The notes below the pieces were generated by a model, which was given only the letters and a program-made list of their open reading frames with translations, ran no database searches and had not been told where the DNA came from. Positions 1 to 8,550 of a stretch of 21,994 nucleotides of DNA are shown here, piece after piece. A program made the position numbers and the translations under genes. How positions within the stretch are numbered: position 1 is the stretch's first letter; each line of letters begins with the position of its first letter. The stretch covers positions 1 to 21,994 of the IMG/VR virus record IMGVR_UViG_2802429253_000005; one strand, given 5' to 3'. Source of the stretch: a virus (Duplodnaviria > Heunggongvirae > Uroviricota > Caudoviricetes).

Positions 1-158
1 TGTGAGTCAGCGAATTACATAGGGGCTCGCAGCTTTATGGCTGCAATAAAGCCGGATATAAAGCTGCAACCTACCGTCAATGTCAAAACAATGGAAGCTG
101 TGCAAAACGGGATGCGTTCATATAAATTCCCCATAGCTTCCCTACCAGGAAGGTAGGC

Positions 159-190
159 ATAAAAAACCAGCAATAACAGGCTGGTTTATA
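159..190 (-). terminator. Intrinsic terminator immediately downstream of the tRNA 3' end (minus-strand sense)
   Basis: Inverted repeat AAACCAGC (164-171) / GCTGGTTT (180-187) with an 8-nt loop; on the minus strand the stem is followed directly by a T-run (complement of A161-A166). Confidence 0.6.
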
Positions 191-199
191 TAATCTTTT

Positions 200-246
200 T
201 GGTCGGCACGAGAGGATTTGAACTTCCGATCCCCGACACCCCATGA
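200..246 (-). other. Partial tRNA gene, 3' ~46 nt only (tRNA-Pro-like); putative prophage attachment-site core
   Basis: Reverse complement reads CATGGGGTGTCGGGGATCGGAAGTTCAAATCCTCTCGTGCCGACCA: T-loop TTCAAATCC, acceptor 3' strand and terminal CCA. Sequence on the tRNA 5' side (247-290) has no matching acceptor strand (no CGGCACG), so the gene is not intact. tRNA-Pro identity is from memory of enterobacterial proL-type sequences, not from a search. Confidence 0.55.
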
Positions 247-540
247 CACTGCTTGTAAAACGCTGAGAGCCGCGCTATTGCTGGTTAAAAGCACTATTCA
301 TATGTATAAACAAACAGTGCTTTTTCAACAAAATCTGCTCTATATACTTCAATGGCTTAAGTGGTGGTTTCTCCCCATGCTTGGTAGGTATAATACCTTG
401 ATGCTAAAGTAGGTTACTCACTTGAAGAAACAGCTAGTTAGTATCAATTATGTTGCTCCAGCTGACTGAAAAAAGTTATCAATGATGCATGGAACATACG
501 CCCTTGAATTTTTCATTAGATTTTAGAAAAGGAATTGAGC

Positions 541-1422
541 ATGGGTTTAGCTGAGTGGTTTTGCGGATTTTGCTCCAATCTGACTGTAAAAGATGGTGGA
601 ACAATTTCAACTAGATATAGGAATATAACGAAGCGTTTAAATACGGATTTTTGGGATAGCAGTTCTGATACTTCTCATAGTCTCTACGTTGGATCATATG
701 GTCGGAACACAGCTACGCAAGGCTTGAGCGATCTGGATATGATTTTTCAGCTACCATATTCCGAGTATCAAAAATACAATAGCTACTTAGGAAATGGGCA
801 GTCAGCATTGCTTCAAGCGGTTAAGAGATCTATTGAAAAAACCTATGCTACCACTAGTATTAGAGGTGACGGTCAAGTGATCCTTGTACCGTTCAATGAT
901 GGAATTACATTTGAAGTCGTTCCAGCTTTCCTCAATGTTAGTGATAGTTACACATTTCCTGATGCGAACGGTGGTGGCCGTTGGAGGATTACAAATCCAA
1001 AGCCAGAAATTTCTGCAATGAGGTTAAGAAATAACATTACCAATAACAATTTGGTGCAACTTTGTAGAATGGCAAGAGCTTGGAAGCGTAAATGGGATGT
1101 ACCTATAAGTGGTTTACTCATTGATACGCTTGCGTATCAATTCATTGAAAATTGGGCGCATAGAGATAAGTCGTATCTTTACTACGATTTCATGAGTCGT
1201 GATTTCTTCAAATGGATGGCTGATCAAGATACGAGTAAGGAGTATTGGAAAGCGCCAGGAAGTGGTCAGTATGTCTATGGTAAAGGGCTTTTCCAATATA
1301 AAGCAAAACGGTGCTATAACATTTCACTCGAAGCTATAGAGCATGAAATGGCGACCCCAAAACGCGAATGGTCGGCTAAGCAAAAATGGCGGGAGATTTA
1401 TGGATCAACATTTCCAGACTAA
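541..1422 (+). CDS. Pol-beta superfamily nucleotidyltransferase, CD-NTase/SMODS-like (candidate signal synthase)
   Basis: ORF of 293 aa from ATG 541 (GGAA 6 nt upstream; the track's 535 start is TTG). Contains GSYGRNTATQGLSDLDMIF, i.e. a G[S]x9-13 Dh[DE]h nucleotidyltransferase active-site signature, with further acidic residues downstream (RGDGQ, FNDG). Size is typical of cGAS/DncV-like or SMODS enzymes, not of small MNT antitoxins. AT-rich codon usage. Confidence 0.6.
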   Translation: MGLAEWFCGFCSNLTVKDGGTISTRYRNITKRLNTDFWDSSSDTSHSLYVGSYGRNTATQGLSDLDMIFQLPYSEYQKYNSYLGNGQSALLQAVKRSIEKTYATTSIRGDGQVILVPFNDGITFEVVPAFLNVSDSYTFPDANGGGRWRITNPKPEISAMRLRNNITNNNLVQLCRMARAWKRKWDVPISGLLIDTLAYQFIENWAHRDKSYLYYDFMSRDFFKWMADQDTSKEYWKAPGSGQYVYGKGLFQYKAKRCYNISLEAIEHEMATPKREWSAKQKWREIYGSTFPD

Positions 1423-1981
1423 GGATACACCTGAATCTAGAAGGGTTTTAGAAGGGCAGATCAGAGAGTGTTATGGTCGGGTCGTTTACTCACATAAGAC
1501 GCATGAAAAATGCTCAGACATTCTCCTATCTCGACTATCTTCTATAAAGTTTTGGCAAATAATTCTCTCCGCCTTAACTACTGGAGGCTTTCTAGCAACT
1601 TTTTTCGGCGCGGGTGAAGTAGGCACGGGGGTTGGGATTGTTGTTTCAACACTGCTTCTCATTCTTAACGCTTATACCAAAGATTATGACCTTGGTGAGT
1701 TGGCGCAAAAACATAAGCAGGCTGCAAATGAGATCTGGTTAATCCGAGAAAAGTATTTATCATTGCTTACAGACTTAGCAATGGGTGAAAAACCAATCGA
1801 GCAATTGCAGTCAGAGCGGGATTCGTTACTCGAGAGTTTACATTCAGTGTATTCAGGCTCTCCTAGTACAACATTTGAAGCTTATAAAAAAGCACAGGAC
1901 GCATTAAAAAACAAAGAAGATTTAACATTTTCTGAAGAAGAAATAGATGCTTTTCTTCCCAAGGAACTGAAAAGAAGATAA
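1400..1981 (+). CDS. 2-TM membrane protein with helical C-terminal region (SLATT-like candidate effector)
   Basis: ATG at 1400 is in frame with track ORF 1343-1981 and overlaps the upstream gene's last 23 nt (coupled operon). Two adjacent hydrophobic helices (FWQIILSALTTGGFLATFF and VGTGVGIVVSTLLLILNAY) followed by a charged, helical tail. SLATT assignment is inference from architecture only. Confidence 0.5.
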   Translation: MDQHFQTKDTPESRRVLEGQIRECYGRVVYSHKTHEKCSDILLSRLSSIKFWQIILSALTTGGFLATFFGAGEVGTGVGIVVSTLLLILNAYTKDYDLGELAQKHKQAANEIWLIREKYLSLLTDLAMGEKPIEQLQSERDSLLESLHSVYSGSPSTTFEAYKKAQDALKNKEDLTFSEEEIDAFLPKELKRR

Positions 1982-1992
1982 ATATGTTGCGA

Positions 1993-2026
1993 GGGCAAAT
2001 ATAAATATTTGCCCCTATTTTTTTAT
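1993..2026 (+). terminator. Intrinsic terminator ending the nucleotidyltransferase/2-TM operon
   Basis: Perfect hairpin GGGCAAATA-TAAA-TATTTGCCC (1993-2014) followed by CTATTTTTTTATTT. Confidence 0.65.
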
Positions 2027-2122
2027 TTGTTAATATTAATTTTAGCAGGGCTAACTTTCCGGTAAGAATTAATTACTGGTCATATGCTCCTTGGTTAATA
2101 AAATTCTATGCCTTACTTGGTG

Positions 2123-2503
2123 CTAGCTGGCTTTAATTTCTCCATGTGGAACTACAACCCAGTCGATATGGTTTTGCGTGTAGATTTTAGTTGATTTCGC
2201 ATCGCTGTGTGCCATTCGTCCTTGTGGATCGATGCCCTGCTGATCAAAAAGATGTGCTGCTAAGGCGCGAATTTCGTGAAAGGTTGGCCTTTCATCCATC
2301 GGCCGTTTGTCATATAAACCCAGCTTGTCACGCGTAGCTGAAAACGACCGACTCAAATAGTCTGGTGCAACTTGAGTGGGATGAGAAACTTCTTTGCTGC
2401 GTTTAACCTGCCGTTCCGGGATCTGGTGAACGATAAATGGGCTGGCCACGTTATTGCGACTTTCATCAATGATCCGCTTCAATTCGTCACCAATCGGTGA
2501 CCG
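2123..2503 (-). pseudogene. int: Truncated lambda-family tyrosine integrase (C-terminal catalytic fragment only)
   Basis: Translation ends ...RPTFHEIRALAAHLFDQQGIDPQGRMAHSDAKSTKIYTQN..., matching the lambda Int C-terminus pattern (PTFHELRSLSARLY...GH.SD.M...Y) with the conserved Arg, His and Tyr. The frame hits a stop at 2504-2506 and the upstream sequence is unrelated, so ~230 N-terminal residues are missing. Confidence 0.8.
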
Positions 2504-2676
2504 CTACATGACGGGAACGCTTACAATCTATTAATGTCTACTAAGTGCTAGGAGCGGACATTGGTTAATGGGGATATGTCATTCGCCTGGGGCAGATCAA
2601 GAAAGTAAAAATCCCAGCTGTCGATAATTGGAATCCATGATAAGGTTTACGGGTAACTGATTGATAAATAAATTGA

Positions 2677-2874
2677 ATGGAATATGGAAAAATGACAAAG
2701 TCAATAGCGGATAAATCTGTAACTGATTTAACTAAAGAAATCGATAAATTAAAGAAAATTGCCAAAGATCTTGAAGATGTATTACCAGAAAAAACACCAC
2801 AAATTAATTCAGCAAAAAAAATCATTGACGATGCAATAAACGAAAGAGAAAAAGAGATAGAAAAGCGTTTCTAA
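2677..2874 (+). CDS. Small highly charged, probably coiled-coil protein (hypothetical)
   Basis: 65-aa ORF (alternative in-frame ATG at 2692) rich in K/E/D with heptad-like spacing; AT-rich; followed by a hairpin terminator. No recognisable family. Confidence 0.35.
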   Translation: MEYGKMTKSIADKSVTDLTKEIDKLKKIAKDLEDVLPEKTPQINSAKKIIDDAINEREKEIEKRF

Positions 2875-2897
2875 GCATAACAATAGACTAGTCTCTG

Positions 2898-2927
2898 GGA
2901 GGCCGTACCAGCGGCCTTTCTTCTTCC
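2898..2927 (+). terminator. Intrinsic terminator after the small coiled-coil ORF
   Basis: Hairpin AGGCCG-TACCAG-CGGCCT followed by TTCTTCTTCCC (moderately T-rich). Confidence 0.4.
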
Positions 2928-3240
2928 CGTAATCTAGTAAAATCGTCGGTTTTTAATCAATTAATTAACTCATCTATTACCAACTCCTGGTTGGTTGCTA
3001 ATGATGTCATAGTGTCGCTAACGGCCTGAATTACTCAGTCCGTTCTTCGCTCAAAGCGGGCTAGAAGGTTAGCTTGCGTCGGACTTGGCGTATTTAAAGA
3101 AGTGCTGGTGGTGACAGGTTATTATGTTCCATTTCTACAGAACAAAATCACAGAAACTATACCCAATAGTTGTATTGAATCACTGACGAGACAGCCTCAT
3201 ATTTATCAGGACTGGTGTACGTCCAATACAGGAGGTTGTG

Positions 3241-3330
3241 GTGCTGGTTCTCAAATGTGCGCTGGCTATTGCTGCTGTAATGGCAATTTATTGCCTTGCT
3301 GTTGTTCTTATGGATCGCCTTTCTGACTGA
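3241..3330 (+). CDS. Possible small hydrophobic membrane peptide (29 aa)
   Basis: Strong AGGAGG (3230-3235) 5 nt upstream of GTG 3241; frame reads (M)LVLKCALAIAAVMAIYCLAVVLMDRLSD, one predicted TM helix with a short charged tail. The track's Cys-rich 74-aa ORF is an alternative frame of the same DNA. Confidence 0.3.
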   Translation: MLVLKCALAIAAVMAIYCLAVVLMDRLSD

Positions 3331-3541
3331 TTTCATATTGGCGAGGTAACGGGAGTTAAGTAGAATGGCTGCGGGTGCTTGAGGCTATCTGTCTCAGGCA
3401 TGAACACCAAAGGCAGATAGAGAAAAGCCCCAGTTAACATTACGCGTCCTGCAAGACGCTTAACATTAATCTGAGGCTCAATCTATGAACGGCAAATCTA
3501 GGTTAGCCTCTTACGTGCCGAAAGGCAAGGAGAAGCAGGCT

Positions 3542-3697
3542 ATGAAGCAGCAAAAGGCGATGCTAATCGCCCTGATCGTCATCTGTTTAACCGTCATAGT
3601 GACGGCACTGGTAACGAGGAAAGACCTCTGCGAGGTACGAATCCGAACCGGCCAGACGGAGGTCGCTGTCTTCACAGCTTACGAACCTGAGGAGTAA
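3542..3697 (+). CDS. hok: Hok/Gef-family type I toxin (membrane-depolarising peptide)
   Basis: 51-aa product MKQQKAMLIALIVICLTVIVTALVTRKDLCEVRIRTGQTEVAVFTAYEPEE is near-identical to the HokD/RelF and Gef consensus as I recall it; GGAG-type RBS upstream of ATG 3542; the track ORF from 3485 is an in-frame upstream extension. Confidence 0.85.
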   Translation: MKQQKAMLIALIVICLTVIVTALVTRKDLCEVRIRTGQTEVAVFTAYEPEE

Positions 3698-3705
3698 GAG
3701 ACCAG

Positions 3706-3785
3706 GCGGGGGAGAAATCCCTCGCCACCTCTGATGTGTCAGGCATCCTCAATGCACCCACACTTAACCCGCTTCGGCGTTTTTC
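3706..3785 (+). other. Structured 3' UTR of the hok transcript (GNRA-loop hairpin plus weak UUCG-loop terminator)
   Basis: GGCGGGGGA-GAAA-TCCCTCGCC hairpin (3706-3727, one G-U pair) and AACCCGCTTCGGCGTTTTT (3766-3785). hok mRNAs are known to carry 3' fold-back elements. Confidence 0.45.
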
Positions 3786-3839
3786 CGTTGATTAACTCTA
3801 TTATCAGAGAACCGAACTTTTACTGATGGGGGCAGGGAG

Positions 3840-4232
3840 ATGAAGAAACTTGTTTTAGTTGCAGGTGTAATGATTGCAACAGTAATGTTGGGAGGGTGTG
3901 CAGCAAAGATCGATCCTGCGTTGAAAGCAGAAGCAATGAAACCACTAACATGTAAAGATGAAAAGCAATGTGACTTTTATTGGAAACGAGCGCAATTCTG
4001 GTTGGCTAATAATTCCTCATGGAAAATTCAAACGGCGACAGACACGCTAATTTCCACTTATAACCCTTCACCAAATAGCCCATTCCTCGCTTATCAAGTG
4101 AGTAAAATGCCAAATGAAGATGGATCTGCAAGAATTTTCATCAAGCCTTTTTGCGATAATATGTTTGGCTGTCAACCAAACCCCTATCAGGCAATTGTTT
4201 CCTTTAAAAACTTCGTTAAAACTGGGCAGTAA
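3840..4232 (+). CDS. Secreted lipoprotein, Cys-rich (hypothetical; possible moron)
   Basis: N-terminal signal peptide MKKLVLVAGVMIATVMLGGC with an L-G-G-C lipobox; GGGAG RBS 5 nt upstream; six cysteines in the mature part; own terminator downstream. Confidence 0.7.
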   Translation: MKKLVLVAGVMIATVMLGGCAAKIDPALKAEAMKPLTCKDEKQCDFYWKRAQFWLANNSSWKIQTATDTLISTYNPSPNSPFLAYQVSKMPNEDGSARIFIKPFCDNMFGCQPNPYQAIVSFKNFVKTGQ

Positions 4233-4361
4233 TGTATAGCGGGACGGTAAATTATTAGTGAAAACGCTGTAAACCCTATGGATTGAGTCAGGATTTAATC
4301 CGATAATTATTCTATCGTTCCTTTACAAGTCCGGCATATTACCTTCAGTTTGTTTTAGCAT

Positions 4362-4388
4362 ACCCGCTTCGGCGGGTTTTGTTTTTTT
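4362..4388 (+). terminator. Intrinsic terminator after the lipoprotein gene
   Basis: CCCGC-TTCG-GCGGG hairpin (4363-4376) followed by TTTTGTTTTTTT. Confidence 0.7.
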
Positions 4389-4459
4389 CTGGCATTCTGG
4401 TTTACAATACGCACGCCAGCCTGAACAACTGGCACCTGCTGCGCCAGCAGAGACAACCG

Positions 4460-4732
4460 ATGGCGCACAATACCAAACATCACAATTCTGATACCGACCT
4501 TGCCAGCAGGCACGGGCTGCGTTCTCACGCATTCAAATATGACTGGTATCAGCACGATCCCTGCACTGAAGAACAGGCCGAATGGCTGATTCATAACTAC
4601 CGCAGACGTGGGTATGAGTTTAAGAAAGCCCTTAGCCTCGACTACCGTCACTGGATAATCTACGTCAGGCTCCCTTATTCCGAACGCCCGCCGCGTCCAT
4701 CCCGCACATTCCAGCAACGCATCTGGAGGTAA
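4460..4732 (+). CDS. Hypothetical phage protein (90 aa), translationally coupled to the downstream DUF968-like gene
   Basis: ATG 4460 in frame with track ORF 4379-4732 (the 4379 start lies inside the terminator hairpin); stop TAA 4730-4732 sits just before GTG 4734; basic, His/Arg-rich product with no recognised motif. Confidence 0.4.
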   Translation: MAHNTKHHNSDTDLASRHGLRSHAFKYDWYQHDPCTEEQAEWLIHNYRRRGYEFKKALSLDYRHWIIYVRLPYSERPPRPSRTFQQRIWR

Positions 4733-4733
4733 C

Positions 4734-5789
4734 GTGCGGGTATTACTTCGACCTGTTCCGGTACCGGAACTTGGGCTGGTGGTGCTAAAGCCGGGCCGTG
4801 AATCCATGCAGGTATTTCATAATCCTCGAGTGCTGGTGGAACCGGAGCCAAAAAGCATGCGTAATCTGCCGTCCGGGGTCGTTCCTGCCGTTCGCCAGCC
4901 GCTGGCGGAGGATAAATCATTACTGCCATTTTTCAGCGACGAACGAGTGATTCGTGCTGCTGGTGGCGCTGGCGCATTGTCTGACTGGTTACTGCGCCAT
5001 GTTAAATCCTGCCAGTGGCCATACGGCGATTATCACCACAGTGAAACCGTCATTCACCGTTATGGCGCTGGCGCGATGGTGTTGTGCTGGCACTGCGACA
5101 ACCAGCTGCGTGACCAGACATCCGAATCACTCGAGCAACTTGCTCATCAAAACCTGTCAGCATGGATGATTGACGTCATACGCCATGCAATGAATGGCAC
5201 GCAGGAGCGGGAGTTATCGCTGGCTGAATTATCCTGGTGGGCGGTCTGCAATCAAGTGGCGGACGCGCTTCCGGAGGCAGTATTACGTCGTTCTTTGGGG
5301 TTACGTGCGGAAAAAATCCGCTCCTTGTACCGCGAAAGCGACATCGTACCGGGAGAGCAGACCGCCACCAGCATACTGAAGCAGCGCACAAAAAATCTTG
5401 CGCCGCTGCCTCACGCCCACCAGCAAAACCCGCCACAGGAAAAGACGGTGGTCAGCATTGCTGTTGATCCGGAGTCACCGGCTCAGTATCTCCAGCGCCA
5501 GAAACCACAACGGGAAGAGATGCCTGTATACACGCGCTGGGTAAAAACGCAGAAATGCATGACGTGCGGTAATCAGGCAGATGATCCGCATCACATCATT
5601 GGTCATGGACTGGGAGGGATGGGAACAAAGGCTGATGATTTGTTTGTTATTCCGCTGTGCCGTAAATGTCATAACGAACTGCACGCCGGGGTAAAAGATT
5701 TTGAAGAAAAACACGGCAGCCAGCTGTTGTTGCTGATTCGTTTTTTAATGCACGCGAGAAATTCGGGTGTCCTGAAGTGGAAAGCATAA
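4734..5789 (+). CDS. DUF968-like prophage protein with Cys/His zinc-binding clusters and a C-terminal HNH-like motif (YdfU-like)
   Basis: GTG 4734 preceded by GGAGG (4723-4727). Motifs CWHCDNQLRD and C-terminal CMTCGN...HHIIGHG...CRKCHNELH. Position directly upstream of rusA and Q matches lambdoid nin regions. Confidence 0.65.
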   Translation: MRVLLRPVPVPELGLVVLKPGRESMQVFHNPRVLVEPEPKSMRNLPSGVVPAVRQPLAEDKSLLPFFSDERVIRAAGGAGALSDWLLRHVKSCQWPYGDYHHSETVIHRYGAGAMVLCWHCDNQLRDQTSESLEQLAHQNLSAWMIDVIRHAMNGTQERELSLAELSWWAVCNQVADALPEAVLRRSLGLRAEKIRSLYRESDIVPGEQTATSILKQRTKNLAPLPHAHQQNPPQEKTVVSIAVDPESPAQYLQRQKPQREEMPVYTRWVKTQKCMTCGNQADDPHHIIGHGLGGMGTKADDLFVIPLCRKCHNELHAGVKDFEEKHGSQLLLLIRFLMHARNSGVLKWKA

Positions 5790-8086: not shown

Positions 8087-8550
8087 GCAGAGTAACCGCG
8101 ATTACCTCCGCTCTGGTTATCTGCATCATCGTCTGCCTGTCGTGGGCTGTTAATCATTACCGTGATAACGCCATCGCTTACAAAGAGCAGCGCGACAAAA
8201 ACGCCAGAGAGTTGAAGTTGGCGAACGCCACCATCGCTGACATGCAGCAGCGTCAGCGTGATGTTGCTGCGCTCGATGCAAAGTACTCGAGAGAATTAGC
8301 TAATGCGAAAGCTGAAAATGAAACTCTGCGCGCTGATGTTGCCGCTGGTCGTAAGCGCCTGCGGGTCAATGCCAGTTGCTACGCAGCCGTGCGTGAATCC
8401 ACCGGACCCACCAGCGTGGATAATGCAACCATCCCCCGACTGGCAGACACCGCTGAACGGGATTATTTCACCCTCAGAGAGCGGCTGATGACGATGCAGA
8501 TGCAACTGGAAGGGGCACAGGAGTATATCCGCACTCAGTGCATTAAGTAG
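8083..8550 (+). CDS. Rz: Rz-like inner-membrane spanin (i-spanin)
   Basis: ATG 8083 overlaps the endolysin stop (ATGA); N-terminal TM helix followed by a long coiled-coil periplasmic domain; Rz1 is embedded in the +1 frame. Confidence 0.8.
8303..8488 (+). CDS. Rz1: Rz1-like outer-membrane lipoprotein spanin (o-spanin), embedded within Rz
   Basis: [21 protein letters not shown]... with lipobox and proline-rich mature region ([27 protein letters not shown]), very similar to lambda Rz1. Confidence 0.8.

Follow-up and report, generated by a model that had tools for sequence, protein, structure and literature searches.

A mobile lipoprotein gene inserted in the hok terminator of a lambdoid prophage, with a possible role in envelope protection

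The stretch of DNA analysed here, hereafter the window, comprises 21,994 nucleotides of a Caudoviricetes virus (IMG/VR record IMGVR_UViG_2802429253_000005, positions 1 to 21,994) and carries at positions 3840-4232 a gene encoding a lipoprotein of 130 residues. Alignments to empty sites show that this gene arrived by horizontal transfer as a single-gene accessory element, a moron, that landed in the hok terminator hairpin of a lambdoid prophage, and the locations of its homologues show that prophages, very small ColE1-type plasmids, large plasmids and an integron all carry members of this mobile family. The lipoprotein probably confers on its carrier an advantage that needs no other gene, most plausibly by protecting the envelope against phages. 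The features on which the analysis rests are the following.

3373..3697, + strand: hok/sok type I toxin-antitoxin locus of the prophage backbone, with the Sok RNA at 3373-3547 (Rfam RF01794 sok, 110 bits) and the mok/hok frame at 3485-3697 (Pfam HOK_GEF, 3e-23)
3767..3784, + strand: left junction, where the hok terminator is present as a crippled copy (ACCCGCTTCGGCG followed by TTTTT, with the stem-closing GG gone), forming direct repeat D1 with 4362-4379; from the empty-site alignments
3780..4361, + strand: inserted DNA of 582 bp, made up of a leader, the lipoprotein gene and 129 nt of 3' untranslated sequence, missing at empty sites and low in guanine plus cytosine (GC)
3826..3839, + strand: purine/G-rich ribosome-binding region, GATGGGGGCAGGGAG before the ATG, from the sequence and a five-locus alignment
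3840..4232, + strand: lipoprotein coding sequence, 130 aa plus stop, an ATG open reading frame (ORF) from the ORF list and its translation
3840..3899, + strand: signal peptide (residues 1-19) and lipobox C20 (codon 3897-3899), by the PS51257-type rule
3951..3971, + strand: first CX5C pair, C38...C44 (CKDEKQC), invariant in a 56-sequence alignment and placed by AlphaFold2 where a strand turns into a helix at the start of the folded domain
4152..4172, + strand: second CX5C pair, C105...C111 (CDNMFGC), with C105 invariant and C111 kept in at least 90% of the same 56 sequences, in the loop before the C-terminal helix
4362..4387, + strand: intact intrinsic terminator (ACCCGCTTCGGCGGGT plus T-run), the original hok terminator, now 3' of the lipoprotein gene; from a terminator scan, with a fold of -13.1 kcal/mol and z -3.2

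Insertion of a single gene into the hok terminator

Two insert-free comparators, phage vB_EcoS-640R1 and Escherichia coli LR-24, are collinear with the window on both sides and lack exactly positions 3780-4361. The upstream SMODS-SLATT/hok backbone of LR-24 is 99.7% identical to that of the window. Both empty sites have only one hairpin terminator, ACCCGCTTCGGCGGGTTTTGTTTTTT, after hok. The window has two copies of the 13 bases ACCCGCTTCGGCG, one at 3767-3779 and one at 4362-4374, which flank the 582-bp insert. The left copy of the hairpin folds at -5.1 kcal/mol (z -0.6), no better than shuffled sequences, and the terminator at 4362-4387 is near-identical to the single terminator of the empty sites, with one base different in the T-run. 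The GC content of the insert is 38.8%, compared with 50.5% and 54.2% in the flanks; a value as low is found in only 4% of equal-sized windows, the minimum being in the cargo region further upstream. Extra DNA with empty sites in collinear phages, and a base composition unlike that of its neighbours, correspond to a moron in the Juhala/Hendrix sense (as summarised in PMC3594210). The term had been used in the initial annotation, made from the sequence alone, and is borne out by these data and by relatives at other sites in other mobile elements, described below.

The same annotation had placed the gene in a cargo region, as is indeed the case: it lies between SMODS-SLATT/hok-sok and DUF968-rusA-Q. 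It had also credited the gene with a terminator of its own, which is incorrect. An intrinsic terminator is present at 4362-4387, but the empty-site alignments rule it out as the moron's own, since it is the hok terminator of the backbone and is present once in insert-free phages and strains. The hypothesis of a miniature transposon was ruled out as well, as no inverted repeats are found at the insert boundaries.

The crippled left junction is shared by 57 of the 58 fetched loci with an E. coli-type gene start (the window counted), and those copies therefore descend from one insertion event. The exception is an E. coli viral contig (L016, 1-331) in which an IS-like (insertion-sequence-like) end with a reversed transposase frame abuts the lipoprotein ATG, the hok-derived leader being gone. 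The gene order in E. coli is always hok, lipoprotein, an ORF of ~90 aa, DUF968, rusA and Q, in the nin region.

The ORF is a real gene under purifying selection, far beyond what is expected by chance, as judged from a ratio of nonsynonymous to synonymous substitution rates (dN/dS) of ~0.1 across genera and from the 1139 representatives of its family. Its 130-residue product is MKKLVLVAGVMIATVMLGGCAAKIDPALKAEAMKPLTCKDEKQCDFYWKRAQFWLANNSSWKIQTATDTLISTYNPSPNSPFLAYQVSKMPNEDGSARIFIKPFCDNMFGCQPNPYQAIVSFKNFVKTGQ. A G-rich Shine-Dalgarno-like stretch, GGGGGCAGGGAG, is located directly 5' of the ATG, in agreement with the ribosome-binding site initially proposed, and the leader is kept as TTTACTGATGGGGATAGGGA in relatives from other genera in an alignment of five loci. 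Compared with the Enterobacter homologue, dN/dS is 0.105 with a dS of 1.43; in the comparisons with Pantoea, Phytobacter, Yersinia and one viral contig dS is saturated and dN ranges from 0.10 to 0.21, and values of 0.17-0.28 were obtained for dN/dS within E. coli. Apart from one frameshifted variant (P0012), the translations examined have an intact frame. Of 5426 complete E. coli genomes, 255 (4.7%) carry the gene, all copies being chromosomal, and it is annotated as 'hypothetical protein' in every E. coli row listed. The listed carriers include human, poultry (avian pathogenic E. coli, APEC), pig (enterotoxigenic E. coli, ETEC) and ST131 isolates.

The hok/sok locus lies directly upstream of the insert and is the likely source of transcription into it, by analogy with an LF82 prophage lysogen, for which the moron table gives hokD an expression value of 3792, the largest of the entries considered (PMC9928086). 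A promoter scan found no sigma-70 site with at least 9 of 12 matches between 3698 and 3839. By eye, only a -10-like TATTAT was seen at 3799-3804, without a -35 element, and a TTGnnn...TAGGAT is present at a similar place in relatives in the five-locus alignment. Because the upstream hairpin is defective and the insert shows no convincing promoter, the lipoprotein gene probably rides on the hok transcript in the lysogen, where it would be transcribed as a 3' extension ending at 4387. A parallel in Yersinia, whose homologue (58% identity) lies 136 nt 3' of parDE in the same orientation, lends support to read-through. It cannot be the general expression mode, since the gene of the tail-operon relatives comes after an intact terminator-like hairpin and the conserved leader TTTACTGATGGGGATAGGGA-ATG, and another mode must exist there. 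Relatives elsewhere have downstream hairpins of their own. In the window, the insertion would illustrate how a moron borrows the transcription signals of a resident toxin-antitoxin locus.

The insertion parts hok from its terminator (3698-3785 and 4362-4387), an arrangement that nonetheless persists in 255 genomes. The processing of the 3'-end of hok mRNA is part of hok control, and the hok transcript may here have an altered 3' end and altered regulation.

The lipoprotein and its family

The N-terminus of the protein, MKKLVLVAGVMIATVMLGG followed by C20, passes a PROSITE PS51257-type lipoprotein rule, which comprises a basic n-region, a hydrophobic core, a lipobox of the form [LVI][ASTG][GAS]C and the Cys at position 15-35. 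The lipobox, MLGG before C20, is as clear as initially described, and only 2 of the 94 window ORFs of at least 60 aa pass the rule, the other being the Rz1 spanin inside Rz (8303-8488). A strict lipobox is found in 167 of 199 family members. The residue at position +2 is Ala, as it is in 127 of the 167 lipobox-bearing members, and it is never Asp. In E. coli the +2 residue sets outer-membrane sorting according to the Lol rule, and sorting to the outer membrane is therefore predicted. The lipid anchor would thus hold the protein at the inner side of the outer membrane; the domain would lie in the periplasm, where the cysteine pairs would form disulfides.

The mature protein of 111 residues is predicted to form a full alpha+beta domain. 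It contains five cysteines (C20, C38, C44, C105 and C111), rather than the six of the initial annotation, and four of these lie beyond the lipidated Cys, arranged as two CX5C pairs. Residues C20, P35, C38, C44, T73 and C105 are invariant in the 56-sequence alignment and C111 is nearly so; the pattern CX5-6C...CX4-8C is kept in 183 of 199 family members. The mean per-residue confidence (pLDDT) of the AlphaFold2 model, built from a 12-sequence alignment, is 78; taken in blocks of ten residues, the mature domain mostly scores 85-93 (range 67-93). The predicted topology consists of a short helix, a strand, a long helix, four strands and a C-terminal helix. The loop of residues 77-83 is both the least conserved stretch and the least confident part of the model. 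Foldseek searches against PDB and BFVD gave no match at an E-value of 0.001 or better. The weak matches are of a generic kind, to the eukaryotic KA1 domain, the BamC N-terminal domain and Flpp3/DUF3568, and represent a likeness of fold only, with 6-15% sequence identity and no CX5C pairs reported there. In the model the fold is a common two-layer alpha+beta sandwich, also present in some bacterial lipoproteins, from which no function is transferable.

Searches for a known family indicate that the protein is a member of a large uncharacterised family, unrelated in sequence to Cor, Llp, Rtp45 and Bor. Scans with Pfam (E-values up to 1) and NCBIfam assigned no family, Pfam giving only a chance match to collagen C4, and a search of the PDB sequences with two family profiles returned nothing. 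A full-length match was obtained to phrog_16082 (residues 1-130 of 130, E 1.8e-83) and a second one to phrog_4186 (residues 27-126, E 1.6e-8), in both cases with no function assigned. Matches to Cor (phrog_1119, E 0.0096, residues 1-44) and to an Rz-like group (phrog_812, E 0.18) cover the signal peptide only. Among 56 family members, Pfam revealed PDZ on fused members and sub-threshold DUF6491 and DUF4124, and nothing else. The expectation that the protein matches neither Bor, Cor, Rz1 nor TraT is hence confirmed by the Pfam and NCBIfam scans, with the Cor and Rz-like matches limited to the signal peptide. For Llp the evidence is weaker, in that Llp is absent among the listed fold-search matches and the presence of an Llp model in Pfam or PHROGs is uncertain. 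The profile and structure searches that had been suggested as a check matched no housekeeping lipoprotein family, so that the outcome named in advance as a refutation did not arise. In the literature, no paper on the lipoprotein family was found, and the RefSeq accessions of the protein and of its plasmid homologues were not found in papers. An Rfam scan over 2800-5000 yielded sok only; a match to rsmX in the 3' stretch of the insert is attributed to chance (19.9 bits, E 0.69).

A word-indexed search recovered close relatives only, and an exhaustive hidden Markov model (HMM) search was needed for the family. This search retrieved 1139 representatives (50%-identity clusters) at E-values up to 1e-3, and 531 at E-values up to 1e-10. 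In a scan of species genomes with a restrictive pattern, a single metagenome-assembled genome matched. The 90%-identity cluster of the window gene (3840-4229; 1137 members with an 87-aa representative) is mixed with Hok toxins, probably an artefact of gene calls that were partial or ran hok and the lipoprotein gene together, and was not used for family size or names.

In prophages of other genera the gene is found at several sites. The Enterobacter hormaechei homologue (80% identity) is located between the tape-measure gene (H) and gpM. Homologues in Pantoea ananatis and in viral contigs (74-82% identity) lie between I and J, or in a K-I cargo islet with a YafO toxin or a Bro antirepressor, and that of Phytobacter lies in a prophage remnant with gpM. 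The Yersinia enterocolitica homologue (58%; L072-L074, 5314-6402) occupies the prophage early region directly after ParDE, ~1.1-1.4 kb from a sieB homologue with two small genes between them. An extended -10-like element, TGGTAAAAT, is present upstream of this homologue. A relative with a C-terminal PDZ domain is encoded beside int/AlpA of a prophage.

Plasmids constitute a second group of carriers. A 41%-identical homologue, WP_032201349, is encoded by ColRNAI (ColE1-type) plasmids of 2.5-8.6 kb in Salmonella, Citrobacter and Enterobacter; in those of 2.5-4 kb it is nearly the sole cargo, beside Rop, mobilisation genes and a convergent ORF of 69 aa. Examples are L136 from Salmonella (3988 bp) and L137 from Citrobacter (2519 bp), as well as L140, which looks like a dimer of such a plasmid. 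The conserved 69-aa ORF (MTKFEAFKDQ...), tail-to-tail with the plasmid homologue, has no family match and, on reading, no obvious signal peptide. Acinetobacter accounts for 126 of the 144 plasmid matches. In Acinetobacter baumannii plasmids of ~110 kb (L138, 5776-6345) the protein has an ordinary signal peptide without a lipobox, followed by LysM and then the four-Cys domain. On the conjugative plasmid pNi1-3 of Shewanella decolorationis (L141, 5660-9310), a 44%-identical homologue is the first integron cassette beside intI. The sequence GTTAGGC precedes its start codon, an attC (GCCTAAC...GTTAGGT) follows its stop codon, and the same attC follows the next three cassettes. With an inverse core of the form RYYYAAC, a core of the form GTTRRRY and a promoterless ORF next to intI/attI as criteria, this homologue is classified from its sequence as an integron gene cassette. 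Family carriers are also environmental, and include Shewanella from sludge, Mycetohabitans fungal endosymbionts, Pantoea and metagenomes.

Proposed function and alternative explanations

The repeated and independent capture of this single gene indicates a self-sufficient, selectable function: four kinds of mobile element have taken it up, including plasmids with almost no other cargo, so that the gene seems to pay its way alone. Prophage-borne outer-membrane lipoproteins are a known class, in which few families (Cor, Llp, Rtp45, Bor) have been worked out. As the most likely single function we tentatively propose receptor-independent superinfection exclusion, that is, a block to phage entry. 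The lipoprotein would bind a conserved envelope component and make the carrier cell harder for foreign phages to enter, and this protection would be independent of the receptor used by the resident phage. The strong conservation of the protein is in keeping with a conserved target in the host, or with a step that many invaders share. The fusions to LysM and PDZ place the domain in the periplasm. The genomic context lends support to this proposal, as relatives reside in lambda-like tail-tip operons (the H-M, I-J and K-I sites) and near sieB and toxin-antitoxin modules, and the window gene itself lies downstream of SMODS-SLATT and hok/sok.

Precedents are Llp and Rtp45, described below, and HK97 gp15, a moron in the tail operon that acts as a superinfection-exclusion protein and excludes phages independently of the outer-membrane receptor (PMC3594210). 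Both genes are AT-rich single-gene insertions in a lambdoid phage, and relatives of the window lipoprotein use the same type of site, in the tail operon beside the tape-measure gene. In contrast, gp15 belongs to the YebO family, is small, resides in the inner membrane and is not a lipoprotein (PMC3594210), and no homology exists between the two. Should the lipoprotein prove to be an entry block independent of the receptor, this would be relevant to the host range of therapeutic phages in E. coli, including ST131, APEC and ETEC carriers, and would assign a role to a considerable number of proteins now called "hypothetical".

A more far-reaching version, which we regard as rather unlikely, is that the family represents a new and widespread single-protein envelope defence, in which a cysteine-paired periplasmic domain, tethered to the outer membrane or through LysM to peptidoglycan, blocks a step common to many phages. 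Candidate targets would be a tail-associated cell-wall hydrolase, or the passage of the tail tip and of DNA across the periplasm. Such a defence, if true, would explain stand-alone carriage by prophages, 2.5-kb plasmids and integrons.

Several observations weigh against a role in phage exclusion. PADLOC gave no match for the lipoprotein, and it has no characterised homologue, all database names being 'hypothetical protein' or similar. Some distant relatives are found in plain chromosomal settings, beside a porin or alpha-2-macroglobulin/PbpC. At 111 residues the mature lipoprotein is larger than the known exclusion lipoproteins, Rtp45 being ~6 kDa. Tail-operon and cargo sites are typical of virulence morons too, such as lom.

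The alternatives differ in how well they accommodate these data. A host-fitness or virulence factor similar to Bor of lambda or TraT of the F plasmid, conferring serum or complement resistance, stress tolerance or colonisation and unrelated to phages, is not favoured but deserves consideration. The lipoprotein resembles Bor in being a prophage moron lipoprotein (PMC3594210), and Bor and TraT are likewise outer-membrane lipoproteins of mobile elements that are expressed in the carrier cell. The human, APEC, ETEC and ST131 isolates among the listed E. coli carriers, as well as a strong sequence conservation that suits a conserved host-side target, are in line with this explanation. By contrast, the protein has no Pfam match and no similarity to Bor or TraT, which act in serum resistance or surface exclusion; the relatives fused to LysM or PDZ argue for action in the periplasm and not at the cell surface; and the family is spread in environmental Proteobacteria and metagenomes, where serum resistance is irrelevant.

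An orphan periplasmic immunity protein or inhibitor, directed against an envelope-attacking enzyme such as a peptidoglycan hydrolase of the type VI secretion system, a bacteriocin, a host lysozyme or a phage tail lysin, is a further explanation of comparable weight, likewise not favoured. The protein shares with the products of orphan immunity genes a periplasmic location, paired cysteines, small size, single-gene organisation and high mobility; one version is fused to the peptidoglycan-binding LysM domain, and in tail operons the gene lies near that of the K protein, which carries an NlpC/P60 peptidase domain. Against this, none of the genomic contexts that were examined has a cognate toxin gene next to it, its structural similarity is weak, and known inhibitor families have, to our knowledge, a different fold.

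The initial annotation had considered superinfection exclusion or serum resistance as possible roles. In the classical form of exclusion, known from Cor, Llp and Rtp45, the outer-membrane receptor of the resident phage would be bound by the lipoprotein from its periplasmic side, and adsorption of that phage and its relatives would stop. Llp of T5 and Rtp45 of Rtp, the best understood among phage lipoproteins of this type, are periplasmic outer-membrane lipoproteins that bind the phage receptor from inside, and a disulfide has been described in Rtp45 (PMC12685063). The window lipoprotein is similar to them in being encoded by a phage as a single gene without a partner, with a predicted lipid anchor in the outer membrane and a periplasmic domain; its conserved cysteine pairs recall the disulfide of Rtp45, and in some relatives the gene is directly beside J or the tape-measure gene. 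It differs in size and organisation, as Rtp45 (~6 kDa) and Llp are small and the window protein forms an alpha+beta domain of 111 residues with two cysteine pairs; no sequence similarity was found, and neither protein is among the listed PDB fold matches. In the pattern known from BASEL-type phages, such exclusion genes sit beside the receptor-binding gene, whereas in E. coli the lipoprotein gene is part of the nin region, well away from the tail genes, and shows no covariation with the receptor-binding domain of J. Cor of phi80, N15 and HK022 is comparable as a type of carrier, being a lambdoid-prophage moron that alters outer-membrane function and excludes phages (PMC3594210), but the only match to it (phrog_1119) is the signal peptide, it is likewise absent from the listed PDB fold matches, and nothing ties the window lipoprotein to FhuA.

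The J proteins provide the most direct comparison for such a mechanism. The comparison was made with an E. coli O177:H21 prophage (L135) that has the gene at the same hok/DUF968 site; J of the window's prophage lies beyond the window end. The last 250 aa of the L135 J have no detectable similarity to the J proteins of three non-E. coli carriers of the Pantoea type, and the N-terminal 800 aa are homologous to them, with 33-35% identity. The lipoproteins of those three carriers are nonetheless 74-82% identical to that of the window. Moreover, tiny plasmids and integron carriers have no receptor-binding protein. The unrelated receptor-binding ends of J and the carriage on tail-less elements make a block of the own receptor in the manner of Cor or Llp unlikely, and we consider this explanation improbable. 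Finally, a functionless hitch-hiker kept in E. coli by linkage to hok/sok would agree with the origin of all but one of the fetched E. coli-type copies from one insertion at one site and with carriage by only 4.7% of complete E. coli genomes, but it is made very improbable by purifying selection within E. coli (dN/dS 0.17-0.28) and between genera (0.10, with dS saturated), by a frame that is intact except in the P0012 variant, and by independent capture by many kinds of mobile element.

Neighbouring features in the window

Further features of the window are the following.

535-1981, + strand: SMODS nucleotidyltransferase and SLATT/2TM effector pair, similar to a type I cyclic-oligonucleotide-based antiphage signalling system (CBASS); PADLOC cyclase 4.7e-144 and effector 1.4e-84, with RefSeq SMODS/SLATT in strains of 99.7% identity
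8303-8488: Rz1 spanin of the window phage, inside Rz; a match to the lipoprotein rule

At least 80% of the window region 1-3800 is present in only 11 complete E. coli genomes. The five top matches listed for it all end at 3779, the left edge of the insert, and the one that was checked (LR-24) is without the insert.

Between the hok terminator and DUF968/ydfU, a conserved ORF of ~90 aa is located at 4460-4732 on the plus strand. Related phages annotate it as 'toxin to Rem' or hypothetical, and it has no PADLOC match. The ORF at 2123-2482 on the minus strand corresponds to a frameshifted and N-terminally truncated 'recombinase' pseudogene in near-identical strains, and this remnant may be a relic of the arrival of the upstream cargo.

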